NCBI GenBank assembly: GCA_022184915.1
Contig: JAGTJU010000008.1
Span: forward strand, 6,760-70,759
Source of the DNA: Myxococcales bacterium
GTDB lineage: Bacteria; Myxococcota_A; Polyangia; Fen-1088
Length of the DNA: 64,000 nucleotides
Direction of reading: 5' to 3'
Shown here: positions 43,609 through 61,365 of the stretch, piece by piece
Numbering within the stretch: the stretch's first letter is position 1
Layout of the letters: each line of letters begins with the position of its first letter
The notes under the pieces: generated by a model
What the model was told of the DNA's origin: nothing
Seen by the model: only the letters and a program-made list of their open reading frames with translations
The model's database searches: none
Translations under genes and position numbers: made by a program

Positions 43609-45111
43609 TCAAGCCGGCCACAGATCCGAATCACATCCCGTCTCGCCCGTGCCTCCGGGCGGTCCCCTCGCCGGTGACCACGTGGGCACCTCCGCTGAGA
43701 GGCCCTTGTAGGCCAGGATCGTCTCGATAGCCCCCCGCTCTTGCACAGGGCCCAGCACCTTCATCGGCCCCGCGCAGCGCGGGCACACCAGCACCTCGTG
43801 AGCGAACACGCGCCGCATGAGCTCGGCCCAGCTCATCGCCGCTGCGTCGCCTCGCTCCCGTAGCTCCGTGACGTGGTCCTCACCCCCATCACCTTCGCCC
43901 TCGCGCTTGCCACACCCTCGTCGCGCCTTGCGCCCTGCCCCTCCCGGCACGATGCGGGCCCGATCCGCCGCCGCAGGCGCGAACACCCCGTGGTAGCGAA
44001 CCAGTTGGGCGCGCGGACGTGGCACCAACGCAACCAGCTTCTCGATGAACTCCTCGGGCGTAAACGCAACGTGCGTGGTGCCGTCGCGCCACGGCCGTTT
44101 GAGCCTGACGGCCACTCGCCCGTCGGGCAACTCCGAAAGCCTATCTTCGCTCAGCGGTGGCCGTGCGATGTAGCGAATCAGCCGCTCCAGGCCGTCCCTG
44201 TCGTTGGCTGCGATGCGCGTGCTGGCGTGCAGGTTGAAGCCCTCCACGAACGCGCACTGCTTCCCCAACACGTAGGGTTCCCACGACGCGATCGGATCGT
44301 TGCCGAGCCGCATGACCGCTTGTCCTCGGCGCCTTCCCGTGGCGATGAGGGCTTTGACCGAAGCGCCTGCGATCACGGAGAGCGCCTCGGCGTCGGCAGC
44401 GTCTCGTTCCTCTGACGAGGCAAGCGCCCGCGTTACACCCTCCCAGATCCGCGCGGTCACCTCGGCCACCTCCTCATCGCGCGGAGGTGGCGTGGCGAAG
44501 AACGCGGGCCGCCCGGGCGTGTCGACACGGAACACGCCGTCGGTCACAACGGAATGAAAGTGAACGTTCAGCGCAAGGCCCGAGCCGAAGCGCTGAATCA
44601 CCGTCACGGCGCCCGTGGCGAGCGCGCCGCGCACTCCGGCCTTGCGCGCACGCTTTCGGTACCACCGGCTCACCTCGCGCAGAAAGACCCTCAGCACCAC
44701 GCTGGCCAGGTGTGGCTCGCGCGCCATGCGGTAGCGAAGCGCGTGCGGCACCGTCAGCACCCACTGGCGTGCTGGGACCGCCGGAAACACGTTGTCCACC
44801 ACGTGCGCGGCCGTCTCGGCCATGCGCCGCCCAAGGCAGCTGGGGCAAAAGCCTCTTCGTTTGCACGAAAACGCCACGAGCCGCGTCTCGGCGCAGGCTT
44901 CGCAACGAACGTTGACGAACCCCTTGCCCAGAATCCCGCAACCCAGATACGCCTCGAACTCCGCCGCCACGAAGGCGGGCAGAAAACCACCCTCGCCTTG
45001 CAGATTGTCGCGGAACGTGAGCCAGGTGTCCTGCACCACGCGGTGAAGCTGCGTCTTTTCAGGCTCCCGGCGCCGATACCCCGAGACTTTCCCTGCGGCT
45101 CTGTCGACCAC
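43609..45111 (-). CDS. IS91-family (Y2 HUH rolling-circle) transposase
   Basis: The N-terminal zinc-ribbon is CEACAETRLVAFSCKRRGFCPSCLGRRM. The HUH-like motif is NVHFHSVVTDGVF. The C-terminal …RYIARPPLSEDRL…VRYHGVF is the tyrosine region. Confidence 0.7.
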   Translation of the reverse strand: MVDRAAGKVSGYRRREPEKTQLHRVVQDTWLTFRDNLQGEGGFLPAFVAAEFEAYLGCGILGKGFVNVRCEACAETRLVAFSCKRRGFCPSCLGRRMAETAAHVVDNVFPAVPARQWVLTVPHALRYRMAREPHLASVVLRVFLREVSRWYRKRARKAGVRGALATGAVTVIQRFGSGLALNVHFHSVVTDGVFRVDTPGRPAFFATPPPRDEEVAEVTARIWEGVTRALASSEERDAADAEALSVIAGASVKALIATGRRRGQAVMRLGNDPIASWEPYVLGKQCAFVEGFNLHASTRIAANDRDGLERLIRYIARPPLSEDRLSELPDGRVAVRLKRPWRDGTTHVAFTPEEFIEKLVALVPRPRAQLVRYHGVFAPAAADRARIVPGGAGRKARRGCGKREGEGDGGEDHVTELRERGDAAAMSWAELMRRVFAHEVLVCPRCAGPMKVLGPVQERGAIETILAYKGLSAEVPTWSPARGPPGGTGETGCDSDLWPA

Positions 45112-45285: not shown

Positions 45286-46038
45286 ATGTGGACGCAGACG
45301 CTTGCCCAAGTCCTCTGCCGAGGTGGGTGGGCAACCGCGTTCGCGATGAGCGTGGCGGCCTGCTCGGTCGTGACCTACCAGCCTGTTTCGGGCCTTTCAC
45401 GCCCCACGGCCATCAGCGCCGAGCGGAGAAACTTCGAGGGCCGGCGGATGGTGCTGCGCTGCTTGCCCGGCGGCTACCTCGACCCGCGCGACACCCAGCG
45501 CCTCTGCGCGCGCGTGCAAGCGTTGTTTGCGGGGCAAGGCGCCGAGGTGCAGATGGCGCTCACCCGCGCCGGCACCCAGCTTGGTGGGCCGCCCGCGCAG
45601 GCGGGGGCGGTCGACCTCGTGCTCGAGCTGCGGAGCCACTTGATTCACAAAGAAAGCAACGTCTGGCTGAGCATCCTGTCCGGCCTCTCGCTCACGCTGA
45701 TTCCCGCGATCAGCAGCTTTTCGTTCGCGCAGGACGTGGTCGTGCTCGACGCGGATGGCTTTCAACTGGCTTCGGAGACCCTCGAGGGACGCTTCGTCAC
45801 GTACTTCGGGGCGGGCGTGTGGAGCGTCAACAAAGTGCTGGACCTGCTGGTCCGCGAAGAGGACGAACACCTCACAGGCGACACGGCCAAGACTGACTTC
45901 TCGAAGGATTTTTATCGGCAGTTGAGTCAAATCGCGCTGAACGCGCACCTGCGCGCCCGGGTGATGCGTGCGTTCGACGAACCCCCGCGGCCGAACGCCC
46001 CTCCCCGGCCCCCCCTGTCATCGGCGGCACCACGATGA
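45286..46038 (+). CDS. lipoprotein, hypothetical; first gene of a 13-gene envelope operon
   Basis: Signal/lipobox AFAMSVAACS, 250 aa. ATGA overlap with the next gene. Confidence 0.5.
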   Translation: MWTQTLAQVLCRGGWATAFAMSVAACSVVTYQPVSGLSRPTAISAERRNFEGRRMVLRCLPGGYLDPRDTQRLCARVQALFAGQGAEVQMALTRAGTQLGGPPAQAGAVDLVLELRSHLIHKESNVWLSILSGLSLTLIPAISSFSFAQDVVVLDADGFQLASETLEGRFVTYFGAGVWSVNKVLDLLVREEDEHLTGDTAKTDFSKDFYRQLSQIALNAHLRARVMRAFDEPPRPNAPPRPPLSSAAPR

Positions 46039-46673
46039 CCACGTACTTTTTGTTGTTCCTGCTCGATCACTTTCTGTCGGGCCGCCACGCCGATCCCTCG
46101 CCCGGGGTGGTCCATGGCAAGGCGGATGTCAGGAACCTCGAATGCACGCGGCTCAGTCAGGCCGTGGCGCACGACCGCCGGCCTGGCGAAGTGGCAGAGC
46201 CCTCACCCCGGGTCACCTGGGACCGGGGCTCGGCGCTCGTCTGCCGGCAGCGCTACGTGCGCCTTGGCGAGCGGGACCCGCGCGACGAAGCGGTGCTGTC
46301 TTCGCTCGGGCGCCACGTGGGTGACATCACCCGCGAAGCCAGCGCCGCCGTGGCGGGTGACGTCGTTTGGCACGTCGACGCCTTTTACCCGGACCTGTTG
46401 GTCTCGGCGAAGATAGCGGTGGCCGCAAAAACGAACCTCGTCGAGACCGGCCGTTCGGTGTCGGACCGGGTGCCCCTGCTCGCCGCGGGCGACTTGGCGG
46501 TGTTCGGCAAGCTGTCCCCCGTGCGGTCCTTGCCGATGGCGTGCGTCCGCTACTTTGCGGAGGGCTCCCTGGGTCCGCGGGACGTGCTGCTTGCGATCGC
46601 CTTGCTGGACGAGCAGGAGACGCAGCTCCACGGTGGCCTTTGCCAGCAAGGCACCTGGAGGTGGCTGAGGTGA
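46035..46673 (+). CDS. hypothetical protein
   Basis: 212 aa with a hydrophobic N-terminus (MTTYFLLFLLDHFLSG). Overlap-coupled on both sides. Confidence 0.4.
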   Translation: MTTYFLLFLLDHFLSGRHADPSPGVVHGKADVRNLECTRLSQAVAHDRRPGEVAEPSPRVTWDRGSALVCRQRYVRLGERDPRDEAVLSSLGRHVGDITREASAAVAGDVVWHVDAFYPDLLVSAKIAVAAKTNLVETGRSVSDRVPLLAAGDLAVFGKLSPVRSLPMACVRYFAEGSLGPRDVLLAIALLDEQETQLHGGLCQQGTWRWLR

Positions 46674-47866
46674 AACGCCCTCGTCTCCTCGCAGCCTGGG
46701 CGCTCGCCTTCGTGGCATCCACCGCGCACGCCAACGACGCGGAGCTCTCGCCGGCGCAGCGGACGGAGATGGAGGCGTTGCGCGGAGAGATTGCCGCCGG
46801 AATCCAGCTGCAAGCCTACGACCTGCTCGACGAACTGGTCCACGGCTGGCTCCAGCGCCCCGTGTTCGACCAGCAGACGCCCGTCGTGCTGGGAGACATT
46901 GGGGTGCCCGTGGGCTTCGGCAGCGGCATGAAGGCGCTCGTCGAGACCCATCTCGCGGGCCTTTTGGTGGACAACCCGCGCACGAACGCCGTGCTCGTGC
47001 ACTGCCCACGCTGCACGGCGGTCGTGATTCACTCGGGCGCCCAAGGCACCGTCATCTCCCGCGGTGTGGACAATCCAGCGGCCCTCGCCGAGGCGGGAGC
47101 TTCGCTGGGCAGCCACCACGCGCTCTTCGTGGACTTCGAGGCCGAGGGCACGGCGCTGGTCCTGCGCGCACGCATCACGCGGCTCGAGCCGACCCTGCCC
47201 ATCGTTTACGCGAAGACCCTCTCCACCACCACCTCCGCCCCGGCGCTCCTCCGGACGGGCGAACGCCTCAAGAGCGCCCGGGAAGCGCGCCAGGAGTTCG
47301 ACGATGCCCTGCGAGGCCGCAGCTGGTACCTGGTGCCGTTGCGCATGGGTCTGCGCGCTTATGCCGCGGCAGAGGACGTGCCCGTGGTGGCACAACCCTT
47401 CGGTTGGATCCAGATGGGGGTGGAGGGCGCGCTCAGCCAGGCCCGTTTGTGGACGGCGGGCTTTGCGCTTGGCTTTTCGTGGGCGCCGGAGTCCCACTGG
47501 GGGTGGTTGGCGCAGGCGCGGATCTCACGGCTTTTGAGCGGCGCCGCCACGTCGCTCACGCGCCCTGACCTTTACGCGTTCGTGGGCGCTTCGATCATCT
47601 CCGTTCACGGCGATGGCTCCTCGATCTTTCGCAACCGCGTTCCCTCGCTGGAAACCCTGCTGGGACAAGTCAACCGGGTCGAACCCAAGGAAACGTTCGC
47701 TGCGTTCCCGCTGGGGCTCGAGCTGCGGGTCAAAAACCGCATCGGCGTGGGCGTGTATCTCGAGTCGGCGCCCGCGTTGAGTGACGCCGACGCGATCGGA
47801 ACGTATCTGGATCTCGGCATCGTGGCGTTTCAGTCGTACGGCGTGGAGGTGTCCTTTTGCTTCTGA
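46670..47866 (+). CDS. secreted protein, outer-membrane beta-barrel-like (C-terminal …VEVSFCF)
   Basis: GTG start overlapping the previous stop. Signal VKRPRLLAAWALAFVASTAHA. The C-terminal aromatic residue is typical of OM beta-barrels. Confidence 0.5.
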   Translation: MKRPRLLAAWALAFVASTAHANDAELSPAQRTEMEALRGEIAAGIQLQAYDLLDELVHGWLQRPVFDQQTPVVLGDIGVPVGFGSGMKALVETHLAGLLVDNPRTNAVLVHCPRCTAVVIHSGAQGTVISRGVDNPAALAEAGASLGSHHALFVDFEAEGTALVLRARITRLEPTLPIVYAKTLSTTTSAPALLRTGERLKSAREARQEFDDALRGRSWYLVPLRMGLRAYAAAEDVPVVAQPFGWIQMGVEGALSQARLWTAGFALGFSWAPESHWGWLAQARISRLLSGAATSLTRPDLYAFVGASIISVHGDGSSIFRNRVPSLETLLGQVNRVEPKETFAAFPLGLELRVKNRIGVGVYLESAPALSDADAIGTYLDLGIVAFQSYGVEVSFCF

Positions 47867-48846
47867 GGCGGGGCCGAGCCCCGGGCCGCGTGGCGTACGT
47901 GCTCACGCTGCTGGCGGCGCTGTGTCCGAAGGCCGCGTCCGCCGCCACCGAGACCACGCGCGAGGCGTTGGCGCGCATGGAAGAGACACTGGTCATGAAG
48001 TTCACGGATGAGGGGCTCGCCCCACAGGAGCTGACGCCCGCCATCGTCGTGAGCGTGACCCCCGCGTGGGAGGCCAGCGCCACCTGGTATCCCAACGCGG
48101 CGCTTTCGTCGCTGGCGCGTGTGTTCGGCAGCGCGGCGTTGCGCGCCTGCGAGGCTTGCATGTCCCCGCGCACCTACGTGGAGCCGGGCCGGGTGGAGCA
48201 AGTGTCCACCGCGCCCAGCCTGGACGAGATCGTGCGCCTCGATGAAGGCAGCCGCGGGCAGGCGGCCCCGGCCCGCACGGCGATTTGGCTCGATGAAACG
48301 CCCGAGGGTGTGTCCCTGCGGATCGTGAACCTCGCAAACGGGCGCATCATCCTGGCCGCGAACATCGACCCCCTGCTGACGCGCACCGCCCGCACGCGGC
48401 GCTCGTTCACGCTGGCCCAGGAGCTCGACCGCCGATCGCGCGGCGACAGCATCACCCACACCTTTGTCGACCTCGCCGTTTACCCCGGCCAACACCTGTC
48501 GCTCGATTGGGCGGAGCAGTGGGGCACCACCAACAGCAACCTGTCCGGGTTTTCTCTCTCTTTTTTCGATCCGGTTTTGGGACTGGGTGGCGCTTACTAC
48601 CGCGCCCTGCCGGATGCGATGAACATCTCCGTGGGCGCCAAAGTTCTCATGGCCTTTCCCACCGCCCTGGTGCGCGCCTTCGGGGGCGAAGACGACGTCG
48701 TCGATCCCCTGTTGACGGGCGTGTTCCTCGCCCGCGTGCCCTTCGGACGTTCCAACTACGGCGTCATTTTGTCGGCCTCCACCAACGGACGCATCGGCAT
48801 CGGAATCTCACTCATGAACACCTCGCTGCTCCCCTTCGTGCCATGA
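47857..48846 (+). CDS. secreted/periplasmic protein, hypothetical
   Basis: TTG start overlapping the upstream stop. Signal …VAYVLTLLAALCPKAASAAT. 329 aa. Confidence 0.45.
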   Translation: MLLRRGRAPGRVAYVLTLLAALCPKAASAATETTREALARMEETLVMKFTDEGLAPQELTPAIVVSVTPAWEASATWYPNAALSSLARVFGSAALRACEACMSPRTYVEPGRVEQVSTAPSLDEIVRLDEGSRGQAAPARTAIWLDETPEGVSLRIVNLANGRIILAANIDPLLTRTARTRRSFTLAQELDRRSRGDSITHTFVDLAVYPGQHLSLDWAEQWGTTNSNLSGFSLSFFDPVLGLGGAYYRALPDAMNISVGAKVLMAFPTALVRAFGGEDDVVDPLLTGVFLARVPFGRSNYGVILSASTNGRIGIGISLMNTSLLPFVP

Positions 48847-49478
48847 CCAACGCGCGTATCGCCTTGCTCGTTGTCTTTGTCCTGTGCGGCTGCGCGGGGC
48901 GCAACTACACCTACTATCTGCTCGATCCCCCGCCCGCCACGCATCCGGCGCTGACCGAGGGCGGCGTGCTGACGCGTCCCCTGGGATTCGGAAGCACCAC
49001 CGTGATGAAGGTGCGGTGGAATGACGGCAACGTCATCACGGAGGTGGACGTTCCGGTGCTCGCCACCGGCCAGCGCATCGTGATCGAACACGGCGCCGGC
49101 AGCCCGGACGTCAAGACCATCCCCGCGACCCGCGTGGTCCCGCCGCCGCCCACGCGTGCGGACGAAGCGCTCGTGGAGGCGTACCGCGCCCGCGGCCTGC
49201 GGGTGGACGAGGACGCGCCCGAGGTCAGCATCGTGCGCGCCCGCGCCTTGATGCAGGATGCGATCAAGGGCGGCAACTATCACGTGGCGCTCGAGTGGTG
49301 CGAAACGGTGCTCGCACGGTATAAATTGCACCCCGAGTTTCTCCGCGCCAAGGCCTCCTTGCTGCTGATGATGGGCGAACGTGACAAGGCCATCGAGATT
49401 TACGAGCAGGTCGAAGCGATCGAAAGCGACCCGGCGGTCCGCAGGAAGCTGGAAGAGCTTCAACGTCAACAAAGATAG
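48843..49478 (+). CDS. lipoprotein with helical (TPR-like) C-terminus
   Basis: Lipobox LCGCAG. ATGA overlap with the upstream gene. The C-terminal …ALEWCETVLARYKLHPEFLRAKASLLLMMGERDKAIEIYEQVEAIE is TPR-like. Confidence 0.5.
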   Translation: MTNARIALLVVFVLCGCAGRNYTYYLLDPPPATHPALTEGGVLTRPLGFGSTTVMKVRWNDGNVITEVDVPVLATGQRIVIEHGAGSPDVKTIPATRVVPPPPTRADEALVEAYRARGLRVDEDAPEVSIVRARALMQDAIKGGNYHVALEWCETVLARYKLHPEFLRAKASLLLMMGERDKAIEIYEQVEAIESDPAVRRKLEELQRQQR

Positions 49479-49486
49479 GAAGAGAC

Positions 49487-50221
49487 ATGCAGCTTCTTGG
49501 ATTGGCCCTTTTGGGTTTCATCGTTTGGTTCGGGTTTCGGGATCGCAGCAGCGACCAGGCGATCTCGGCCTTCGACGCACACGCGCTGGTCATGGTCCTC
49601 GTGGGCTCGGGCGCCGCGGTGCTCGTCAGCTCGCGGGGGCGCGATGCGCTGAGCACGCTCACGTCGCTGCGCGAATTGGTGCCCGGGCTCCGCGGCTACG
49701 GCGCCGCGAGCGCCGCCATGGAAGCGGAACGCAGCGAAGCGAGCGCTGCGTGGGAGGGAGCGCGGCGGCGCGAGGCGCTGGCCCTGGCCGAGCGCACCCG
49801 CTTTGCACCGGTCAAGCGGATGATCGAGCTGCTCATCGGCCGGGCCTCGGAAGGCGAGGCCACCAAGACCTTCATGGAGCTGCGGCACGCCGAGATCGCG
49901 CGGCTGCAACCGGCCATCAACAACTGGGAGATGTTGTCGAAGCTCGGCCCCGCCTTCGGCATGGTGGGCACCATCACGGGCATGATCCGTCTGTTTCAGA
50001 ACATGAGCGCCGAGAACCTGAACATCGGCGCCGCGATGTCCCTGGCGCTTCTGGCCACGCTGTACGGAGTGGCCTTCGGCGCCGGCGTGGCGGGGCCCAT
50101 CGCGCAGCACCTGAACCGGCTGCTCGACGAGCGGCTGGGGGTTCTCGAGCGTTGTGAAAAAAGCGCCATCGACTCGGGTTCTCGGGCCACCGTGGCGGCG
50201 CTCGAAGCGAGGGTAGGCTGA
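49487..50221 (+). CDS. MotA/PomA-like four-TM proton-channel stator subunit (MotA/TolQ/ExbB superfamily)
   Basis: TM1/TM2 close together at the N-terminus, a ~100-aa cytoplasmic loop, then FGMVGTITGMIRLF and AMSLALLATLYGVAFGAGVAGPIAQ as the TM3/TM4 signature. Confidence 0.7.
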   Translation: MQLLGLALLGFIVWFGFRDRSSDQAISAFDAHALVMVLVGSGAAVLVSSRGRDALSTLTSLRELVPGLRGYGAASAAMEAERSEASAAWEGARRREALALAERTRFAPVKRMIELLIGRASEGEATKTFMELRHAEIARLQPAINNWEMLSKLGPAFGMVGTITGMIRLFQNMSAENLNIGAAMSLALLATLYGVAFGAGVAGPIAQHLNRLLDERLGVLERCEKSAIDSGSRATVAALEARVG

Positions 50222-50224
50222 GCC

Positions 50225-50848
50225 ATGCAGCGGCGCCCCCTGCAGCACGAAGAGAGCTGGCTGCTCAGCTACGCCGACCTCATCACCAACTTGCTGCTGT
50301 TCTTCGTGGTGCTGCTGACGGCGGCGAACCTGAGCCGCGGCAAAATGCAGCAGATCGCCAAGAGCATCTCGGGCAGCGAAAGCCCGGCCAGCCTGGCCTC
50401 GATTCAAAAAGAGATAGAGGCGCAGATCGCAAGCAAGCAGCTCGAAAACATGGTTCGCACCAGCATGTCCGAGGCGGGGCTCGAGATCTCGATGAACTCA
50501 GGGCTGGTGTTCGATTCGGGCAAAGCCGTGATCCGGCCTGACCTGGAGAACACGCTGATGGCCATGTTGCAAGTGCTCGAACCCTATGCCCGAAAGTACG
50601 GCTTCGCCGTCGAGGGCCACACCGACGCCACCCCCATCACCGGCGGCGCGTTCGCCAGCAACTGGGAGCTGTCGAGCGCGCGCGCGATCGTGGTGCGGCA
50701 TCGGCTGGAAGCCGTGGGCATTCCCCGCGACCGCATCCGCGTCGAAGGCTATGCGGACACCAAGCCGCTTGCCGCAGACGAGCTTGCCGGTCTCAGTGTC
50801 GAAGAAACCCTGGCGCGCCACCGGCGCGTGGTCGTGAGGATATTCTGA
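50225..50848 (+). CDS. MotB-like stator subunit with OmpA-type peptidoglycan-binding domain
   Basis: N-terminal SWLLSYADLITNLLLFFVVLL has the MotB plug/TM with the conserved Asp. The C-terminal GHTDATPITGGAFASNWELSSARAIVVRHRL is the OmpA-family PG-binding motif. Confidence 0.75.
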   Translation: MQRRPLQHEESWLLSYADLITNLLLFFVVLLTAANLSRGKMQQIAKSISGSESPASLASIQKEIEAQIASKQLENMVRTSMSEAGLEISMNSGLVFDSGKAVIRPDLENTLMAMLQVLEPYARKYGFAVEGHTDATPITGGAFASNWELSSARAIVVRHRLEAVGIPRDRIRVEGYADTKPLAADELAGLSVEETLARHRRVVVRIF

Positions 50849-52644
50849 TGCGCATCTGGCTTGCCTTCGTAACCCTCCTGTGTGCGGCGCCTGCGGCGGC
50901 ACAAACACTCGTGCCCCAAAAGCACGTTCCCGCTGCGGTCCTGGAGCAACTGCGGGCTGTGGAGGCGCAGTTCGAGGCGGCCTTGGCGCGCGACTGTGCG
51001 CCCGAGCGCTGCCTGCCCAAGGGCTGCATCTACCGAGACCATACGGTGGTGGATCTGCCGCGGGCCCGGTCGTTGCCGGGTTTCGACGAAGAGGAAGGTC
51101 CCGGCAGCGTGCCGCTGCAGGAGTACCTCACCAGCGCACAGTGCGAGTTCGTGCACGAAAAGAACGTGAATGCACGTGACCTTCAGGCGCTGGCGCGGCG
51201 GCTCGAACAGAAGCTCTCGCGGGGCTGGCTGAAGGTCAGCATCGCCCGCCAGGCCTTAGAGCCCCTCTCGAGCGCGCTGGCCCAGCCGCCCGCGGACGAC
51301 GAGGGCGCGGCGCAGACACCCGAGACACAGAGCACGCCTTCCCCCACGGCGGCGACGCCCCCGCGGGAACAGGAAGCGCCTGCGCGCGAGTTGTGGCTCA
51401 CCTTGCTCCCACACTTTGCGTGGATGATCGCGCTCGTTCTGGTGACGGCGTCGGCCATGACGCTGATCTGGTCGCTGCGGCGGCTCGGTCGCGAGAGTCT
51501 CGAGGAGCGCGCCCTCCTGGCCGAACTCGGCGCCCAAGCGTCGCACGACAGCAAAAACTCGACGGAGGCCGACACGGAGGCAGAGGACAAAACGCCTCTG
51601 CGAGACGACCCCGCCTTCGTGGCCGCTGCCCACGGCTTGTGGAGCGACCGCATCGCCCAGATCCAGCTGGGCAAGGACAACGGCGTCATCGTCGAGCTGC
51701 TCCGACAGTGGCTCAAGCAAGGAAACTTTGCCTTGCTGGCCAAGGCCATCGTGGTGTTCGGCGATCGCCTGTCGCTGGCGTTCCCGGCCGATGGCGACCT
51801 GGCGGTGCGCAAGGTCGAGTTCGCGGACTACCTGCGCCAGCTGGATGAGACCACCTTGCCCTCGGACGCGGAGTTTTTCCGTAAGCTCGGCCATCACGCG
51901 GTGTCATCGACCTTGCTGTCACAGACCGATGCCGCCGTTTACCATAGCCTGCGCGACGAGTTCGGGATGGCCGGCGTGGCGGCGCTCATGGCACGCCTGC
52001 CACCTCGCTTCGCAGCGCTGCTCTTTGCGCTTTCACCCACCGAGTTCCATCAAGACCTGGCGCGCGCCTTGGCGCCCGCCGCGCGCGCGCTGGTGGCGGG
52101 GCAGCTGCTCCTTTCGAACCGCATGGCGCCCGAGGAGCAGACGTATCTGTTTGCCGCGTTGGCGGCGGCGCGCGCCGGCGGCACCTTGCCCGCGGCCCCC
52201 CCCGAAGGCGTGCTGGATCGTGGCCGTGAGATCGACGCGGCAGGGCCGATGGCGCTGCTGCTGCAGGAGCTCACGCCCGACGAGCGCCGGCGCTTGTTTG
52301 CCGAGGCGGTCGCGCGCTGGCGCGGCGGCCTGCCCCCGTGGTGCCAAACCATCGTGGCGCCCGCCCTGTTGCTAAACCTGCCCGCCCACACGCAGGCTGA
52401 GCTGCTGCTGGAGGTGGACGTGCGGGAGCTGGCGGCGTGGCTGTGGACGTTTCCCGCAGCGGCACGGCAACCGCTGGTCGACACACTGCCGACGGCGCTG
52501 CAGAACGCCCTGCGCGCCCACACCGATTTTGGATCGCGCGCCGAACAGGTCGCGCTGGCGGCGCGGGGGCGAAGCGCACTGGCCGCGGCTGTGCAGCGCG
52601 CGGCCGCAGCCGGCAAGCTCAGCTTCGAGACGCTCTGGGCTTGA
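50848..52644 (+). CDS. signal-peptide + single-TM membrane protein with ~370-aa cytoplasmic FliG-like (armadillo-repeat) domain (hypothesis)
   Basis: Signal MRIWLAFVTLLCAAPAAAQ, TM WLTLLPHFAWMIALVLVTASAMTLIW. The C-terminal helical repeats, especially VDVRELAAWLWTFPAAARQPLVDTLPTALQNALRAHTDFGSRAEQVALAARGRSALAAAVQRAAAAGKL, parallel the FliG C-terminal/MgtE-N pattern. Confidence 0.45.
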   Translation: MRIWLAFVTLLCAAPAAAQTLVPQKHVPAAVLEQLRAVEAQFEAALARDCAPERCLPKGCIYRDHTVVDLPRARSLPGFDEEEGPGSVPLQEYLTSAQCEFVHEKNVNARDLQALARRLEQKLSRGWLKVSIARQALEPLSSALAQPPADDEGAAQTPETQSTPSPTAATPPREQEAPARELWLTLLPHFAWMIALVLVTASAMTLIWSLRRLGRESLEERALLAELGAQASHDSKNSTEADTEAEDKTPLRDDPAFVAAAHGLWSDRIAQIQLGKDNGVIVELLRQWLKQGNFALLAKAIVVFGDRLSLAFPADGDLAVRKVEFADYLRQLDETTLPSDAEFFRKLGHHAVSSTLLSQTDAAVYHSLRDEFGMAGVAALMARLPPRFAALLFALSPTEFHQDLARALAPAARALVAGQLLLSNRMAPEEQTYLFAALAAARAGGTLPAAPPEGVLDRGREIDAAGPMALLLQELTPDERRRLFAEAVARWRGGLPPWCQTIVAPALLLNLPAHTQAELLLEVDVRELAAWLWTFPAAARQPLVDTLPTALQNALRAHTDFGSRAEQVALAARGRSALAAAVQRAAAAGKLSFETLWA

Positions 52645-52650
52645 GACCCC

Positions 52651-54654
52651 ATGCCGCGCCTCGCGCTTTTTGGCTTGTGCCTGTGGGCAGCGACCACCGC
52701 GTGCAGCAAGGTGCCGCTCACCAACGTCGACGCCGGCTTCGAGCTGGCCGACGCCGTGTGGTTCGAGGACGAGCACACGCTCTTCGTATTTTACAAGTTG
52801 CAGGCAGCGCAGGGCCTGGGGGCCGAGAGCCAGGTCGAGCTGGGATTTCGCACCGATGAGCTCACGCAGGCCTTCGCCTCCGTCAGCAGTTTCCCCACCG
52901 TGCATCAACACGTGGCCGTGGATTGTGGGCAGAACGCGCGCTGCGGAAGCACCAGCCTCAGGCTGGCAGAGCGACCCCGGCAGGTGACGCTGCGGCTCCG
53001 CTATCATCGAGAGGGCAATGTGTTTTTGGCAACGGACACGCTGCTCACCATCGTGGGCGCAGGCCAGCGCTACAACCACCGCAGCCTCATCGTCTACGGC
53101 GTGTTCGATGAAACCAACACGCGCGTGTTCTGGCGGGCGCGCCACCAGTTCCCGAATTTGCGCAACCAAGAGGTCGAGGCGCTGGGACTCAGGCGCCGGG
53201 TCAGCATTGCCGGCCGTCGTTTCGGTGACCCAGGGGCCCTCCCCGACGACAATCCCTACGGCTACGGAGCCTTCGACACCTGTCCCCCGTCGCTGCAGGC
53301 GCTCGACGCCAACGAACTCGAGACGCGCGCCCGGTCGGCGCTCGACCGAGAGCCGCTGCCTGCCGAGGCCGCTGCGGCCCCGCTCGTGTGCGCCACCGCG
53401 ACCGTGGACGATGCAAAAGGCCGCTTTGCCGCCACGGCGCTCGCACGGAAGAACCCTCAGACCCGGCCGGCGTTCCCCGCGTTGCGTAGCCCCATTCGCC
53501 CGAACCGGGCGCTGGGCTACGTGCTTCGGCCCTGCACCCGTGTGATCTCCGACGTGCACGCCGCCATGCAAAGTCAACGGCTGCTCTTCGTGGACGCCCC
53601 CGAGGTGTGCATCGATGACTGGATGATGCCCGGCTTCGCCGAGCAGCTCGCGGCGCGTATCCGTACGCGCATCGACGAAGAACGCACGAGGGGAGAGGAC
53701 ATGGTGCTGACCTTGGCGCTCCATCACGACGATCCCACGGGGGCCCTGGCGGACAGGGTGGAAGACGCTTTGTCGATCGCGCTGGCCCCCGAGCGGGAAA
53801 AGACGACGCCCCGGCTGACGGGCGCGTTCGTGTTCGACAGCTTCGGGCATGGCATCACGCGAGAGCCCGTGCGACAGATGGTGCTGTGGTGCCCCGCCCG
53901 GGCCGGCAGCGTCCTGGATGAGCTCCCCGAAGGGGCCCCCCGGGCGTGCCCTCTTTTGCCCGACTTGCCGCAGCTGACCTTCGGTGCGTTGCGGGCGAGC
54001 GTGCTGCCGATCCTGCCCACGCGCGCGCAGTACCTGCGGTTTCTCGAGACCTACGGCGAAGCGCAAGCGGGGCGCATGCGTGCGCTCACCTTCTTGGCGC
54101 CCGAACGCACCCCGCTGTCCCGGAACGTGCAGGTGGGCGACTTCGGGGTGGCCACGTTCTTCAACGACGAGGCGATCTCGGCCTTGCCGGGTGATGTGTT
54201 CTCCCACTGCCCCACCGAAGATCCACGCACGGCCGCCGTGGTGTTTTTCGACGAAGCCGAGGCCACGACGCGGCTCCTCGCGGAGCTGCCGCTCGTTCAC
54301 GAGACGGCGCCGCAACCGAGCTACGCGCTTGGCATCGCGTGGGATTTCCCTTACCTCACACGGCTCGACTACCAAGTGACCGTGGCGGGCGCCGTGAGCG
54401 CCTTTTCGTTGTCGGTCCCCTTCGGCATTTCGGGCACCAACACCTCGTACTTCGGCACCGAGCTGTGGCGCACGGGGGAATTTCCCCTGCGCGAAGCGCT
54501 TCTGCAGTGTGAGCGCTTCTGCGATCATCCCACCTTTGATTCCGCGGGGGTCTACAACGTGCTGGCAACGTTCGCTTCGACATACAAGCAAGAGTGCTAC
54601 CGGCCGCGGTATCCGTCCGTCCTGCCGGAGGAGGCGTTTCCCCTTGATCCGTAG
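52651..54654 (+). CDS. large lipoprotein, hypothetical
   Basis: Lipobox LWAATTACS. 667 aa with many Cys pairs. Confidence 0.5.
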   Translation: MPRLALFGLCLWAATTACSKVPLTNVDAGFELADAVWFEDEHTLFVFYKLQAAQGLGAESQVELGFRTDELTQAFASVSSFPTVHQHVAVDCGQNARCGSTSLRLAERPRQVTLRLRYHREGNVFLATDTLLTIVGAGQRYNHRSLIVYGVFDETNTRVFWRARHQFPNLRNQEVEALGLRRRVSIAGRRFGDPGALPDDNPYGYGAFDTCPPSLQALDANELETRARSALDREPLPAEAAAAPLVCATATVDDAKGRFAATALARKNPQTRPAFPALRSPIRPNRALGYVLRPCTRVISDVHAAMQSQRLLFVDAPEVCIDDWMMPGFAEQLAARIRTRIDEERTRGEDMVLTLALHHDDPTGALADRVEDALSIALAPEREKTTPRLTGAFVFDSFGHGITREPVRQMVLWCPARAGSVLDELPEGAPRACPLLPDLPQLTFGALRASVLPILPTRAQYLRFLETYGEAQAGRMRALTFLAPERTPLSRNVQVGDFGVATFFNDEAISALPGDVFSHCPTEDPRTAAVVFFDEAEATTRLLAELPLVHETAPQPSYALGIAWDFPYLTRLDYQVTVAGAVSAFSLSVPFGISGTNTSYFGTELWRTGEFPLREALLQCERFCDHPTFDSAGVYNVLATFASTYKQECYRPRYPSVLPEEAFPLDP

Positions 54655-55462
54655 GCCAGGATCGGTGGGTTTCGCGCTGGCGCTCGCCCTGGCGTTGCCC
54701 GCGGGAGCACGAGGGCAAACGTCTGCTGTGGTCACACCGCCCGTATCATCCCCTCTGCGTGCAGCCGATGGCGCTGCGCTCGCACCTTACCGTCTGCCGC
54801 TCGATGCGCTCATCGAGCGCACGTTGGGCAGCACCTCCCGGGCCGTGCGTTTCGATTGGCGAAGCAAAGCCATCGGCGTGGGCGCGTTCGGCAGCCAGGT
54901 GCTCGAGCTCAACAACTTCGGGAGCGCGCGCTTCGGGCTCCTGGCCCGCCGCCCCTGGGGCAGTCTGATGACGGAGCTTTCGCTTGCCCGCGTCGAGACC
55001 TGGGGCAGCACGAGCGCCACGCGCTTGTCGCTCACGCCCTACCGGCAAGCCGGACGGCCGAGCCGGTTCGAGCTGGGGCTGAACGTGGGCTATCCTTTGG
55101 CCGAGGGTGTGGCCACGGCGCGCCCTGGGTTTTTCCCGGCCACCGAGCTCGTGTTCTCGGTGAACGCGGAGCTCCGCTACCTTTACTATCCCGGCGCGCT
55201 CAGCGGCGCCACCTTCGGGCAAGTGGCCCGCGCGGCCCTGTCACCGCGGCTGTCGGCGCGCGAAATGCGCAACCTCGAGGACGACCGTTTGCCCGCCATG
55301 GACGTGGACCGCGGCCGTTACGGCCTTCTCGTGGGCTTTACCTTCGACATCTATTTCGCAAAGGGCGGATTTGTCTCCCCGCGCGTGATGATGGCTCCGT
55401 TTGGCAGCGCGGCCCTGGGGTGGTGGTGGGATCTGGCGTTCGCGGCCGGGTGGATGTTTTGA
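54640..55462 (+). CDS. secreted outer-membrane beta-barrel-like protein (C-terminal …AAGWMF)
   Basis: The TTG or GTG start overlaps the upstream gene. Signal …GFALALALALPAGARGQ. Alternating beta-strand pattern with a terminal Phe. Confidence 0.45.
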
Positions 55463-57369
55463 ACGTGCGTCTGCTCTGTCTGGGCGTCAGCGTGGCGCTG
55501 GCCTCGGCGGCACAGGCCGAGCCGAAGGCGCCCCGCGTTCCGCCACAAACGCTCGTATTCTGGAACGCGCGGCTCGCCTTGCGCGAGGGCCGCCCCACCG
55601 ACGCCCTCAAGCTGTGGATGCTTCACAATGGCCTGCGCCAGGCGGGGCAGCCTGCGGCAGAAGAAGGTGATTTTTCGTCGGTCGTGTGGGCCGCGCTGGG
55701 AGAGCTTGGCCTTTGCCAACAGACGTTCCCGCGCGATCAAGACCAGGGCGCGGGCCTGTGGCCCCTGGCGTTGCACAACTACGTGGTGCGCGCCGCCTTT
55801 GCGCCCGAGCCTCCCCCGCGCGCGCCGCCGTTCGCCGCCTTCCAGATGGCACGCCAGGCCCGCACATTCTCGCTGCACGATGTGCTCGACGCCGAAGAGC
55901 TTCGTTCTGTCCGCTTTCACCCCACGGCATGCACGCTGCCGGGCTTGCCAGGGGGCTTCATGGGCCGCGATCGCGGCCGCATGGGTGATCGCATCGAGAT
56001 GATGCGCTACCTGCGGCACACCCTGTCGACAGCGCTCGAAACGGTGACGCCGGGCAAAACCCGGGGCATGGAGGCCGTCGAGGCGCGGCTTTTCGATCTC
56101 GACCTGGCCCTCATCGACGCCGAAACGCGCCGCCTGCGCCTCGCGGGAGTGGAAGCGCGCACGAGGGCGCGTGAGCTAGGGCTGTCGCCGGAGGCGGTGT
56201 TGCGCGCGCGGGTCGCGGACACGGCGTGGCCGCCCACGTCGGCCGAGGGGCGTTTTCTCCGCAGAACGCTGACCTGGCGTGCCGACGCGTGGCTGACGCT
56301 CGAGCGCGAGCGGCGTGTGTTTTTGTTTTCGCTGGCGCGCGCGTACGCCCCGGATGACGCCGCGGCCGAAAGGGTGGCCCTCGCGGTCATCGACGCGCTC
56401 GTCGTGCGGGGCCTCGGCGCGGAGGTGCAGCAGTGGGTGGGCGCCACAGGGACGTCACCGCGTTTTCGTGACGCCCTCACGCAGGGTGAGCGGGGCCTGC
56501 GCCTTCTCACCTTGGACAACGCCTCTGGCTTTCGCGAGCGGAGCGCGGTGGCGCTTCATCGGGCCGTGGCCTTCCTCGAAGCCGGCCAGCTCAAAGACGC
56601 CCTCCGCGCGTTTGCCTACGCGCTGGCGGAGGCCGAGACCTCGCGGGAAGCCGCCGCCCTCTCGGCGCTGTGCCGTCGCTGGCTGGCCTACGTGCTCGCG
56701 CAGTTTCAGGCCGACGCCGAGGTCATCCGCATTCTCGAGACCGTGCTGCCGAAGCCGGATTATCGGATCGTGGCCGCCGACCTGGTATGGCGGGCGGCCC
56801 TGAGGCGGGATGCCGCCTCGTTCGAGGCGCTCATGGCCACACTGCCGCGCGGGAGCGCCTTCGACACCGACGCAGCGGATCTGCGCAAGCTGGCCCACGG
56901 CCGCATCCCCGAGATGCTGAGCGCGCTCGCGCAGCGAAGCCAAGCCGAACCCCACCTCACGTTGCGCCTGTGCGCGCGCCTGCTCGACAACCTGGAGGCA
57001 GAGGCCACGGACGTTCGTCGTAGCCACCTGCCCACGCTGCGCGGCCTGCTAAGCCTTTTCGACGAGATCGCCGCGCGCACGACGAGCGCCGGCGCTCAGA
57101 AGCGCAGGGCCGAAGAGCTCGGGGCACGCAGCCGCGCCCTGCTCGAGGGCCTGCGGGCGCCCCTGGCCGACGACGCCGCGCACGCGCTGTCCCCACGGGC
57201 AGAGACGTTTGCAGGCAACATACGCGTGGCACCGAGCGATCCTTTGCCCTGGCCCTTCCCCGCACCCGACCCGAAGCCCACGTCGGTGTTCGTTCCGCTG
57301 CGTCTGCAGCCGCTCGAGTGGCGGGATGAGACCGGAGCCCTGATCTTCGGCTGGAGTGTGAGCGATTGA
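55459..57369 (+). CDS. large secreted protein, hypothetical (Arg/Ala/Leu-rich helical)
   Basis: The TTG or GTG start overlaps the upstream stop. Signal MNVRLLCLGVSVALASAAQA. About 636 aa. Confidence 0.5.
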   Translation: MNVRLLCLGVSVALASAAQAEPKAPRVPPQTLVFWNARLALREGRPTDALKLWMLHNGLRQAGQPAAEEGDFSSVVWAALGELGLCQQTFPRDQDQGAGLWPLALHNYVVRAAFAPEPPPRAPPFAAFQMARQARTFSLHDVLDAEELRSVRFHPTACTLPGLPGGFMGRDRGRMGDRIEMMRYLRHTLSTALETVTPGKTRGMEAVEARLFDLDLALIDAETRRLRLAGVEARTRARELGLSPEAVLRARVADTAWPPTSAEGRFLRRTLTWRADAWLTLERERRVFLFSLARAYAPDDAAAERVALAVIDALVVRGLGAEVQQWVGATGTSPRFRDALTQGERGLRLLTLDNASGFRERSAVALHRAVAFLEAGQLKDALRAFAYALAEAETSREAAALSALCRRWLAYVLAQFQADAEVIRILETVLPKPDYRIVAADLVWRAALRRDAASFEALMATLPRGSAFDTDAADLRKLAHGRIPEMLSALAQRSQAEPHLTLRLCARLLDNLEAEATDVRRSHLPTLRGLLSLFDEIAARTTSAGAQKRRAEELGARSRALLEGLRAPLADDAAHALSPRAETFAGNIRVAPSDPLPWPFPAPDPKPTSVFVPLRLQPLEWRDETGALIFGWSVSD

Positions 57370-57974
57370 GCGATCCCCTGCGCCGCCGCCAATTCGCCGC
57401 ACGCCGGGCCGCCCTCCGGCACGCCCTGACGGCCGCACGGCAGCGGGCGCACAGCCGCTTGCCGCAGCCTCGGCGGCGGCGAGGCGCCCGTGCCCTCGCC
57501 ATCGCCCTGCTCCTCGCGCTCGTCGCCCTGGCCCGCTGCCTCGCGGAGGCGCCCCCGCCCTCGCCCCCGCCCCCGCCGCAAGACGCCGCGCCCGTCAGCG
57601 CCCCGCAGCCCCCGGCCCCGGCCGCGTCCCCCCCCCGCTCGGCCCCCCTGCCTCCCCGCCCCCGGCTGCGTGTGGCCAGCGCCCCGACGCCTGATTGGAT
57701 CGATGAGTTCAGGCTGCAGGTGGGCGCCCGCAGCCCGCGCCTCGCCCGCTGCCTCACGGGCGCTGCGCTTCCCGGACGTCTGCGTTTTTCTGCCACGGTC
57801 GATCGCAACGCGGGGATCGTCTCCGATGCCGAGATCGAGGTGGCCTCTGGGGGCGGCCCGAGCCGCGACCAAAGCCGCTGCCTCGTGGACGTGCTCCGCC
57901 ACCCGGCTTACGACCTGCGGCGCGGGCAGGCCCCGGCCGTGCCCGAGCGCGTGAGCCTGGTGATCGAGTTCTGA
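57366..57974 (+). CDS. TonB/TolA-like topology protein: cytoplasmic N-terminus, one TM, Pro-rich spacer, C-terminal globular domain (GltG/AgmX-like)
   Basis: TTG start overlapping the previous stop. TM ALAIALLLALVALARCLA, Pro-rich linker PPPSPPPPPQDAAPVSAPQPPAPAASPPRSAPLPPRP, and a ~100-aa C-terminal domain. Confidence 0.5.
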   Translation: MSDPLRRRQFAARRAALRHALTAARQRAHSRLPQPRRRRGARALAIALLLALVALARCLAEAPPPSPPPPPQDAAPVSAPQPPAPAASPPRSAPLPPRPRLRVASAPTPDWIDEFRLQVGARSPRLARCLTGAALPGRLRFSATVDRNAGIVSDAEIEVASGGGPSRDQSRCLVDVLRHPAYDLRRGQAPAVPERVSLVIEF

Positions 57975-58023
57975 CGGGGCCCACCGCCCCCACCGAGCCC
58001 GCCCTTGCGGTCCCCCGGCAAAC

Positions 58024-59103
58024 TTGATAGCCGCTGCCTTTCCCATGAGCGCCTCTGGCACCTTCACGGCCTATCTGGTCGAGCCCGCGTTCGAGGCGGC
58101 GCTCGAAGCGGAGCTGGGGAGCGCGCCGGGCCGCAGCCCCCGGTGGCCGGCCGTGCTCACGCGCCCCCGCGGTCACGACGGGCCCGAGGATCCGATGTTC
58201 GCGCGCCAGGTGTTGCCCGAGGCGCAGCTCATCAAGGCGCCTGCGCCGGAAGCGCTCGTCGAGCAGGTCCTCGAGGCGAGCCTCGCGCGGGTGCAGGGCG
58301 CGGTGGCGGGGCCTTTCGTGTTCACCCCCGACGCCTCACGGTACCGGGCGCTCGCGGCCGCCGTGGGGCCCTGCACGCAGCGCCTCAAAGCGGGTTTGAA
58401 AGCGGCGGGGCACAAAGGGCTTCCCCCCAATCCACAAGCGCTGCGGGCGGCGTTTCGGCAGGGCCGGCAGGTGCTGCAAGTGGCTTTGGTCGGACACACG
58501 TCCGCCCTCGTATCGTGCAGCGTGCCCCGCGCGTGCGTTGGCGGCGGCTTCGACATCTCGCCCTGGCCCGCGGGTCTGGCCCCCGTGGCTCAGGATCGGC
58601 AAGCCCCGTCCCGGGCGTACAAGAAGCTCGAGGAAACCTTCGCGTGGCTCGGCCGCGCTCCCAGGGCTCACGAAACCGTGGTGGATCTCGGCGGCGCTCC
58701 CGGGGGGTGGGCGTGGACGGCGCTCAAGCGCGGCGCCCAGGTGACCGCGATCGATCGCGCGCCGCTGTCTCCGCCCGCGGCGGGGCACCCGGCCCTCGTG
58801 CAAGTGCAGGGCGATGCCTTTGCGTTTTCGCCCCCGGCCCCCGTCGACTGGTTGCTCTGCGACGTCATCTGCGAGCCCGCGCGCTCGCTGGCGCTCATCA
58901 CCCGCTGGGCGCGCGAGGGCTGGTGCCGTCACCTGGTGGTAACGGTGAAGTTCAAGGGCGCCACCGGCAATCATCTCGCCGTGTCTCCGATCGTGTCCGT
59001 GCTGACCACGGCGGGCTTCAGGGTTGCGCGGGTCAAGCACCTGCACAACAACCAGAACGAGGTGGAAGTGTTCGCCTCCCGCGAGGGCGATCAACACGGC
59101 TGA
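58024..59103 (+). CDS. rlmM: RlmM-like 23S rRNA 2'-O-methyltransferase (THUMP-like N-terminus + FtsJ-type MTase)
   Basis: SRAYKKLEETFAW, VVDLGGAPGGWAWTAL (SAM motif I) and DWLLCDV fit the RlmM/FtsJ pattern. 359 aa. Confidence 0.6.
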   Translation: MIAAAFPMSASGTFTAYLVEPAFEAALEAELGSAPGRSPRWPAVLTRPRGHDGPEDPMFARQVLPEAQLIKAPAPEALVEQVLEASLARVQGAVAGPFVFTPDASRYRALAAAVGPCTQRLKAGLKAAGHKGLPPNPQALRAAFRQGRQVLQVALVGHTSALVSCSVPRACVGGGFDISPWPAGLAPVAQDRQAPSRAYKKLEETFAWLGRAPRAHETVVDLGGAPGGWAWTALKRGAQVTAIDRAPLSPPAAGHPALVQVQGDAFAFSPPAPVDWLLCDVICEPARSLALITRWAREGWCRHLVVTVKFKGATGNHLAVSPIVSVLTTAGFRVARVKHLHNNQNEVEVFASREGDQHG

Positions 59104-59195
59104 CACGTAAAGTCGTGTGAACGTCACGTTTGGCTTTGGCCGACATCCGACCCAAATGCTAACGTCTGGCCGCCCCGGCCACGACGGCCGCCTGG

Positions 59196-59855
59196 ATGGT
59201 CATGAATCAGAACTCTCGCTTCGTTCAAACTCTCCTCGAGTTGCCCATCTTCGAGTCCGAATGGGTGCTCTATTTGCTGATCCTGCTGTCCGCGGCCTCC
59301 ATCGCCGTGATGATCGAGCGGGCGGCGTTTTACCGCAGCCGGCGCGTCGACACCGATGGCCTGCGCAAAATGCTCTCGGAGCGCCTTGCGAAGGGCGACT
59401 ACGCCGGCGCCCTCGGCGAGATGCAAAAGCAGGATTCGCTGGAGACGAACGTGGTGCTCGTGGGTTTGCAAGCGTCGGCCAAGGGGCCCGAGTCCGTGGA
59501 GGATCTCATCTCGGGCGCCCTCGGGCGTGAAAAGACCCGCTACGAAAAGCGCCTCAGCTTCCTGGCCACGCTGGCCAGCAACGCGCCCTACATCGGGCTC
59601 TTCGGCACCGTGCTCGGCATCATCCGCGCCTTCCGCGATCTGGCCGCCAACATGGCGGATGCCAGCACCTCGGTGATGGCCGGCATCGCCGAAGCGCTGA
59701 TCGCCACGGCGGTGGGCCTTTTGGTCGCGATACCGGCCGTCATCGCCTACAACGTGTTCAAGGGCCGCGTGAAAGAATCCGTGACCGACTGCCAGATGTT
59801 GTCACGCGTGGTGCTGGCACAGCTCAAGTCCACCGATCTCGGCAAAGCCGACTGA
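59196..59855 (+). CDS. exbB: ExbB/TolQ-family proton channel
   Basis: Three-TM pattern with a large cytoplasmic loop and the signature LATLASNAPYIGLFGTVLGII…AGIAEALIATAVGLLVAIPAV. Confidence 0.8.
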   Translation: MVMNQNSRFVQTLLELPIFESEWVLYLLILLSAASIAVMIERAAFYRSRRVDTDGLRKMLSERLAKGDYAGALGEMQKQDSLETNVVLVGLQASAKGPESVEDLISGALGREKTRYEKRLSFLATLASNAPYIGLFGTVLGIIRAFRDLAANMADASTSVMAGIAEALIATAVGLLVAIPAVIAYNVFKGRVKESVTDCQMLSRVVLAQLKSTDLGKAD

Positions 59856-59882
59856 CCTTCGACGTTTCCTCGGAGACCCTCC

Positions 59883-60323: not shown

Positions 60324-60338
60324 ACCCGCCCCGCACCG

Positions 60339-61304: not shown

Positions 61305-61365
61305 ACGGTTTCCGGCCCAGCGCCGGCCCGGCCCATTCGGGCCTTGCGACCCACGAGCTTTTCGC

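Follow-up and report, generated by a model that had tools for sequence, protein, structure and literature searches.

FliG and MotAB stators of the plug- and OmpA-containing type are treated as specific to the flagellum, where FliG is soluble, has its gene among other flagellar genes and polymerises through its ARM_M and ARM_C segments. The window analysed here is a stretch of 64,000 nucleotides from a Myxococcales bacterium (contig JAGTJU010000008.1, positions 6,760 to 70,759), and all coordinates below refer to it. At 50848-52644 on the + strand, directly behind a motA/motB pair, lies a gene (hereafter the target) whose product is related to FliG and is predicted to be anchored in the inner membrane. 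We class this protein, which belongs to the FliG/MgtE_N clan, as a new FliG paralogue with a membrane anchor and not as FliG proper, because it is not soluble, is not encoded in a flagellar cluster and lacks both the EHPQ motif and the torque charges of FliG.

The closest described system is that of flagellar FliG with MotAB/PomAB. The target is homologous to FliG over the middle (M) and C-terminal (C) domains and shares with it ARM-like motifs, the EVD motif and, at the C-terminus, a bundle of helices with an equivalent of the torque helix; the adjacent MotAB resembles flagellar stators through a plug, an OmpA anchor, the Asp of the channel and a pair of charges in the loop. Unlike FliG, however, the target carries a signal peptide, a periplasmic domain and a transmembrane helix of its own. 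Moreover, no FliF, FliM, FliN, export apparatus, rod or hook is encoded at the cluster, the EHPQ motif and the D288/D289-type pair are absent, and the hosts are Myxococcota that are not known to have flagella. The FliF-FliG junction between MS-ring and C-ring, and the engineered FliF-FliG fusions, resemble the target in joining a membrane/periplasmic module 1:1 to a FliG module, and the order of secondary-structure elements in the periplasmic domain is that of ring-building motifs (RBMs). FliF differs in having three RBMs and two transmembrane helices, whereas the target has one small domain and one helix, and no significant match to FliF or SctJ was obtained.

Two further groups of proteins are relevant. 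FlgY, FlbB and MotE combine a membrane anchor with a C-terminal periplasmic MgtE_N head and associate with stators (PMC13023049). They and the N-domain of MgtE belong to the same Pfam clan as the target, which matches MgtE_N above threshold; however, the target lacks the CBS and channel domains of MgtE, and its FliG-like region is predicted to be cytoplasmic and is about three times the length of the MgtE_N head that the E-ring proteins carry in the periplasm. The non-flagellar 5:2 motors AglRQS-Glt/Nfs, TolQRA, ExbBD-TonB and GldLM are alike in pairing an ion-driven, stator-like unit with proteins of the inner membrane, periplasm and outer membrane; a myxobacterium is again the setting, and a single-pass inner-membrane protein is the likely receiver of force. 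In contrast to the present locus, these motors are of the TolQR/ExbBD/GldL type without the MotB plug or OmpA anchor, make their contacts in the membrane or periplasm and have no FliG-like cytoplasmic partner. In the searchable literature we found no description of a FliG-like protein tied to MotAB outside flagella, and likewise none in PMC12505986 or PMC13104615.

FliG homology and predicted topology of the target

The target is the sole long open reading frame (ORF) with homologues at its position. These homologues form more than 284 clusters, all unannotated, and the UniRef entry of the one from Hyalangium rubrum carries the automatic name 'FliG C-terminal...'. Many invariant columns persist over ~100 family sequences, which we count as a sign of selection. 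The layout of the target is as follows (aa, amino acid; pLDDT, predicted local distance difference test).

50848-52644, + strand: target gene, 598 aa, with signal peptide, periplasmic domain, transmembrane helix and FliG-like cytoplasmic region (ORF list, AlphaFold2 model)
50848-50904, + strand: predicted signal peptide, aa 1-19, ending in AAAQ (hydropathy; A-x-A-Q end conserved in the family alignment)
50905-51267, + strand: predicted periplasmic alpha-beta-beta-alpha-beta domain, aa 20-140 (AlphaFold2 secondary structure)
51268-51378, + strand: Pro-rich periplasmic linker, predicted to be disordered, aa 141-177 (pLDDT <50; variable in the alignment)
51388-51477, + strand: predicted transmembrane helix, aa 181-210, with conserved LLPHFxWMIA followed by RRLGRE (hydropathy; near-invariant columns; helix 178-235 in the model)
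51610-51918, + strand: helical region in the position of FliG_N, aa 255-357 (Foldseek coverage; low-stringency hhalign alignment colinear from FliG residue 21)
51919-52227, + strand: FliG_M-like region, aa 358-460, with ARM_M motif at aa 377-409 (hhalign, weak FliG_M Pfam matches)
52228-52641, + strand: FliG_C-like region, aa 461-598, with EVD at aa 522-524 and the torque-helix equivalent at aa 546-561 (nucleotides 52483-52530; MgtE_N match, FliG_C matches, residue mapping)

The cytoplasmic part of the target and FliG are divergent homologues across the middle and C-terminal domains. In a Foldseek search of the PDB, ranks 1-9 were all FliG, with the FliG MC domain 3ajc as the best match (E 3.4e-4), and MgtE first appeared at rank 12; alignments to full-length FliG chains extended over 327-347 columns. 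The reference for profile-profile comparison was an alignment of 11 proteins annotated as FliG, taken from E. coli and, for ten further taxa, from chromids or plasmids. Against it the profile of the close family scored 38.8 in hhalign (P 1.8e-4), compared with 11.5-18.3 for 20 column-shuffled controls and 12.6 for the reversed control. With distant members added to the family profile the score was 83.7 (probability 97%, P 4.5e-11), and target aa 357-594 were aligned with E. coli FliG 97-324. Here, hhalign pairs target 377-409 with FliG 130-162, that is ARM_M, and the EVD motif is kept, with E522-V523-D524 of the target aligned to E253-V254-D255 of E. coli FliG.

Pfam places the target in the same clan. 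MgtE_N (PF03448), a family of the FliG clan, matches target aa 468-556 with 28.6 bits against a gathering score of 25.9, as it does 42 of the 46 close members and 28 of the 40 distant ones. FliG_C (PF01706) matches 19/40 distant members (best E 2.3e-10), the window target itself scoring below the threshold of this family, and weak FliG_M matches are seen in some members. A custom FliG hidden Markov model aligned two distant members over FliG positions 99-327 at ~35 bits (for P0230, 35 bits over FliG 106-327). The architecture of the MgtE channel was not found in the target, which has no CBS or MgtE match and a single transmembrane helix located N-terminal of the MgtE_N-like domain. An exhaustive HMMER search of 1.84 billion representative proteins with the close-family profile returned only 169 relatives, including full-length members at 15-28% identity, and neither FliG nor MgtE was among the matches. 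A second, word-indexed search with the distant alignment gave the same 284 proteins again and no taxa beyond these, and HMMER comparison of the target with PDB sequences, by single sequence or by family profile, gave no match.

The original prediction, made from the sequence before any database search, had likened the last ~70 residues (aa 523-591) to the C-terminus of FliG. Pfam, fold and profile-profile evidence all bear out this likeness. Its restriction to 70 residues has to be given up, since the homology spans both the middle and C-terminal domains of FliG. The ~35-aa helical repeats that had been noted ahead of this segment, such as AALMARLPPRFAALLFALSPTEF (aa 378-400), are indeed present and correspond to the ARM-like motifs of FliG. 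Generic HEAT or TPR repeats, for which a FliG or MgtE_N profile match would be lacking, can be ruled out: profile-profile, Pfam and fold searches lead to the FliG/MgtE_N clan, and the top fold and profile matches are to FliG specifically. Ahead of these domains, the fold of aa 255-357, and the fold only, suggests a region like FliG_N, which in FliG binds the C-terminus of FliF; comparison of these residues with FliG_N by sequence gave no signal (P 0.67), and the cluster has no fliF.

An AlphaFold2 model built with 46 homologues as input has a mean pLDDT of 76, and its cytoplasmic part (aa 255-598) is all-helical with a pLDDT of 80-93. The other elements of the model are a periplasmic domain (aa 29-136), a Pro-rich disordered linker, a long transmembrane helix (aa 178-235) and a short acidic disordered linker. 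The N-terminus, MRIWLAFVTLLCAAPAAAQ, is a Sec-type signal, and besides it only aa 181-210 form a strongly hydrophobic stretch. RRLGRE follows directly after this helix, which fits the positive-inside rule with the C-terminal part in the cytoplasm. Moreover, the four invariant Cys residues are confined to the N-domain, fitting a periplasmic N-domain and a cytoplasmic C-terminal part. By predicted topology, the target is thus a single-pass inner-membrane protein with a FliG-like part of ~340 residues in the cytoplasm. A protein anchored by a signal peptide and a transmembrane segment is what had been foreseen for this gene; hydropathy and the AlphaFold2 topology agree with it, and the arrangement is conserved across deep divergence. 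FliG, as a soluble protein of the flagellar cluster, contrasts with the target in this respect and in its genetic setting, since the neighbours of the target other than motAB are non-flagellar.

The small periplasmic domain, of a disulfide type, has the invariant residues C50, C55, C60, C99, F42, P77 and G78, which even members at 15-28% identity retain. FliF, SctJ and SctD have RBMs with the same alpha-beta-beta-alpha-beta order, and the domain is compatible with an RBM. Foldseek with the domain modelled alone gave no significant match (best E 0.01, TM-scores <=0.46), PrgK, EscJ and FliF being mixed with equally high OsmC and CDF C-terminal domains, and hhalign found no similarity to E. coli FliF (P 0.26). 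Because neither comparison was significant, we do not claim that the domain is an RBM.

The adjacent stator and conservation of gene order

The two genes directly upstream of the target encode the subunits of a stator, and the stop codon of motB overlaps the ATG of the target (TGATG).

49487-50221, + strand: MotA-like stator A subunit, 244 aa, with R94 and E102 conserved in the cytoplasmic loop (PF01618, MotA_ExbB, 3.7e-16)
50225-50848, + strand: MotB-like stator B subunit, 207 aa, with a predicted transmembrane segment containing D18, a plug and an OmpA-type peptidoglycan-binding domain (MotB_plug 2.6e-14, OmpA 4.3e-16)

Judged by its sequence, this pair is a flagellar-type stator of the MotA5B2 class. 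Searches of PDB sequences with the MotA-like protein or its family returned solely flagellar MotA and PomA at E<=0.01, and the best matches of the MotB-like protein were flagellar MotB and PomB chains, led by B. subtilis MotB (4.8e-23). In hhalign comparisons of the family profiles, E. coli MotA (P 7e-5) was preferred to TolQ (P 3e-3) and E. coli MotB (P 3e-16) to TolR (P 0.3). The channel Asp of the B subunit is retained as D18 in SYADLIT. In the MotA-like protein, a loop of ~100 aa holds two conserved charges, the basic R94, which frequently comes after K/R, and the acidic E102 eight positions on; HMMER aligns both with RREGLLSLED of the solved MotA of Clostridium sporogenes. In an alignment to Vibrio PomA, which we treat as a lead only, R94 and E102 fell at K89 and E97, adjoining R88 and E96.

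By the criteria of a 2025 survey, a plug, an OmpA-type anchor and a long charged loop all mark flagellar (FIT) stators, the plug and OmpA features being defined as flagellar innovations (PMC12505986). The MotB-like protein has the plug/linker and the OmpA-type domain by which the survey recognises a FIT B subunit (PMC12505986). FIT stators also work on a flagellar rotor, and here annotation of the window and of the related clusters, which covers these loci as distinct from whole genomes, contains no flagellar genes besides motAB.

That MotA and MotB genes adjoin the target had been part of the original prediction, and their Pfam domains directly upstream confirm it; the adjacency is conserved over deep divergence. 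The gene order is identical in 17 Myxococcota genome loci (including Hyalangium versicolor and many metagenome-assembled genomes) and in Archangium violaceum, even where the target is only 40% identical. More distant members, at 15-28% identity, lie on contigs of 31%, 41%, 45-48% and 56% GC, in which motA-motB-target or the full order is kept, save for two cases with a divergent motB-motA (below). The target of this window is only 66% identical to its nearest relative and therefore belongs to a divergent branch.

Two side observations concern individual copies. At aa 293, 506, 514, 577 and 583 the target copy of this window is uncharged (N, A, H, A and Q), where 79-92% of the family shares one charge (E, D, E, E and K). 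In another locus (L037, 8633-9985) a called gene of 450 aa with no Pfam match arises because a stretch of N in the scaffold links motA to motB; we rejected a natural fusion.

Other genes of the cluster and its surroundings

The target lies within a tightly packed operon of 12 genes (45286-57974), in which most junctions overlap by 1-4 nucleotides. Its nine further members are the following.

45286-46038, + strand: g1, predicted lipoprotein with a VAAC lipobox, first gene of the cluster (syntenic in at least 12 loci; N-terminus; no Pfam match)
46035-46673, + strand: g1b, predicted secreted protein with no known domain (the window ORF shares 54% identity with a gene called in Archangium violaceum)
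46670-47866, + strand: g2, signal peptide and C-terminal ...VSFCF (synteny, termini; no Pfam match)
47857-48846, + strand: g3, predicted secreted protein of ~320 aa (synteny, signal peptide; no Pfam match)
48843-49478, + strand: g4, TPR lipoprotein with a VLCGC lipobox (TPR_19/TPR_14 matches; adjoins the target in distant loci too)
52651-54654, + strand: g8, Cys-rich lipoprotein of 667 aa, its ATG 6 nucleotides past the target stop (synteny; no Pfam or PDB sequence match)
54665-55462, + strand: g9, signal peptide and C-terminal ...AGWMF (synteny, termini)
55465-57369, + strand: g10, predicted secreted helical protein of ~630 aa (synteny; no significant Pfam or PDB match)
57366-57974, + strand: g11, Arg-rich cytoplasmic N-terminus, transmembrane segment, Pro-rich linker and small C-domain (family alignment, synteny)

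Pfam and NCBIfam searches gave no match for g1, g1b, g2, g3, g8, g9, g10 or g11, the TPR repeats of g4 being the only Pfam, NCBIfam or PDB-sequence match among the nine partners other than motAB. From their signal peptides and C-termini, g2 and g9 are putative outer-membrane barrels. The g8 protein, the constant downstream neighbour of the target, has 10 invariant Cys columns across 13 homologues, and the family profiles of g8 and g10 found no match in the PDB. The small C-domain of g11 contains Cys and ends in LVIEF. Comparison of g11 with TonB and TolA yielded no TonB_C or TolA_C Pfam match and hhalign alignments of just 3-10 columns, the likeness being one of architecture only.

Upstream of the cluster we find an ISAzo13-type DDE transposase (41875-43113, + strand), an IS91-type Y2 transposase with a zinc-binding domain (43609-45111, - strand) and an integrase-like ORF with HTH/rve domains (30071-31606, - strand). 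Three transposase genes upstream thus mark the left flank here as a mobile-element zone, unlike the Archangium locus. Downstream, within 58005-62454, the long ORFs at 58005-59120 (+ strand), 59802-61442 (- strand) and 61177-62352 (+ strand) have no Pfam match; their frames overlap and GC is 67-73%. Elsewhere, the window encodes a B12-binding radical SAM enzyme (19375-21270, - strand), a large secreted protein with collagen triple-helix repeats, DUF7151, choice-of-anchor I and phytase-like esterase domains (24350-26950, - strand), an 848-aa protein with a spermidine-synthase domain (31784-34330, + strand) and a DUF2271 periplasmic protein (36254-37999, - strand).

Possible roles of the FliG-MotAB pair outside flagella

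The observed FliG homology, the topology prediction, the type of the stator and the co-occurrence of these genes lead us to propose that the target is probably the rotor or force-receiving partner of the MotAB stator in a trans-envelope machine. The target would be co-translated with a flagellar-type stator that has the plug, the OmpA-type peptidoglycan anchor, the channel Asp and the charge pair of the rotor-contact helix. Ion flow would turn the MotA pentamer around peptidoglycan-anchored MotB, and the cytoplasmic loops of the rotating MotA would push the FliG_C-like domain. Since this domain is joined through the transmembrane helix to the periplasmic domain, the movement would cross the inner membrane, where helix and domain could relay it to the products of the nine other genes, with their lipoproteins, TPR proteins and putative outer-membrane barrels. 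We infer the physical contact of the FliG-like domain with MotA, and likewise the oligomeric state, the direction of force and the biological output. Either a FliG-like ring would rotate or single units would be displaced, and a ring is plausible because the segments ARM_M and ARM_C are retained. The target would thereby unite two roles that are split in flagella between FliF, as the membrane/periplasmic part, and FliG, as the contact to the stator. Extending this to the whole cluster, we tentatively picture a rotary or rack-and-pinion nanomachine spanning the envelope, a possible but doubtful reconstruction in which peptidoglycan-anchored stators of the flagellar type would drive rings or arrays of the target, with its RBM-like, transmembrane and FliG-like parts, and these in turn would move periplasmic and outer-membrane partners.

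Several observations weigh against a rotor or force-receiving role. The FliM-binding EHPQ of FliG_M is replaced by EFGM in the target and EFGS in the family; fliF, fliM and fliN were not found nearby, and fliM and fliN are absent from the cluster by Pfam annotation. None of five stator-contact charges of E. coli FliG is kept at the aligned position: in the family, K264 is replaced by S, R281 by S/T/A (basic in 16% of members), D288 by A/S, D289 by N/S and R297 by Q. Analysis of charge pairs had been suggested with the original prediction, and in this case the classical torque-helix charges are missing from the aligned positions of the target. Therefore, the interface is not a simple copy of the flagellar one. 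Other charges are conserved in the target family, namely a basic residue at R556 (the R287 position, 78%), R564 in the next loop near the R297 position, and D/E566. As the charges of the stator are kept while the surface of its partner has changed, any interface would be a variant of that in flagella. Gene order provides a further argument. In two distant loci (L033, 894-2272, and a 400-kb JGI/NCBI contig) motB-motA stand divergently at the head of the cluster, and the short contig L034 shows the FliG-like gene without motAB. With motAB divergent or unseen in such loci, the FliG-like gene has a looser link to motAB than to the other cluster genes, notably the TPR lipoprotein gene and the gene downstream.

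In a different division of labour, the FliG/MgtE_N-like region would be a cytoplasmic scaffold or sensor, for example an assembly platform or a superhelix sensing Mg2+ or another ligand as in MgtE, and MotAB would energise g11 or the transmembrane helix of the target in the manner of ExbBD-TonB or TolQR-TolA. The best single-sequence Pfam match of the target is MgtE_N and not FliG_C, the classical torque-helix charges are lacking, and the composition of the cluster (lipoproteins, TPR proteins and putative outer-membrane barrels) resembles Ton/Tol/Glt-type trans-envelope systems. Moreover, g11, with an N-in transmembrane segment, a Pro-rich linker and a C-terminal domain, could be the transducer of the stator, which would again count against the target as force receiver. 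However, g11 has no similarity to TonB or TolA, and the stator is of the flagellar type, with plug, OmpA domain and a long loop bearing the charged pair, and not of the TolQR/ExbBD type. The homology is also colinear with FliG M and C, including the six-helix C-terminal subdomain, and CBS and MgtE channel domains are absent. We therefore consider a scaffold or sensor unlikely, whilst keeping it as the most serious competitor to a rotor or force-receiving partner.

A periplasmic location of the MgtE_N-like domain would instead make the target an E-ring-type stator accessory, with FlgY, FlbB and MotE as precedents for a membrane-anchored, stator-associated protein with a C-terminal MgtE_N (PMC13023049). 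This is very improbable, and we rejected it on the predicted topology: two hydrophobic segments and RRLGRE put the C-terminal part in the cytoplasm, and the invariant Cys are found in the N-domain only. Moreover, at 340 aa the region is more than a single head domain and runs colinear with FliG M and C, and the flagellar collar to which such a protein would bind is absent in these organisms. Least probable of all is that the cluster is a decaying remnant of a flagellum, a fliF-fliG fusion with motAB whose function has gone in lineages that lost the organelle. Myxobacteria, including Archangium and Hyalangium, are not known to have flagella, which would suit such a relic, as would the loss of EHPQ and the acidic pair and the transposases just upstream in this window. 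Against it stand intact ORFs with overlapping start and stop codons, dozens of invariant residues, a 12-gene synteny across lineages from 70% to 31% GC and nine partner genes that are non-flagellar; on conservation and synteny we rejected a pseudogene or relic.

In summary, the membrane-anchored FliG paralogue and its stator suggest that the flagellar rotor-stator pair is also at work in an undescribed non-flagellar machine. If the nanomachine proposed for the cluster is true, the torque module of FliG and MotAB would serve outside flagella as well; according to its branching position, it could have been exapted from flagella or be related to the pre-flagellar ancestor of rotor and stator. If real, the torque-generating interface would be a portable module, and the family would provide a new outgroup for the origin of the flagellar rotor-stator pair. 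Archangium and Hyalangium are culturable, and the cluster would thus offer a simple, tractable system for the study of stator-rotor coupling without a C-ring switch or export apparatus. For the myxobacteria themselves, these findings point to an unexplored machine of the cell envelope, with gliding, secretion, sporulation and predation as candidate roles.

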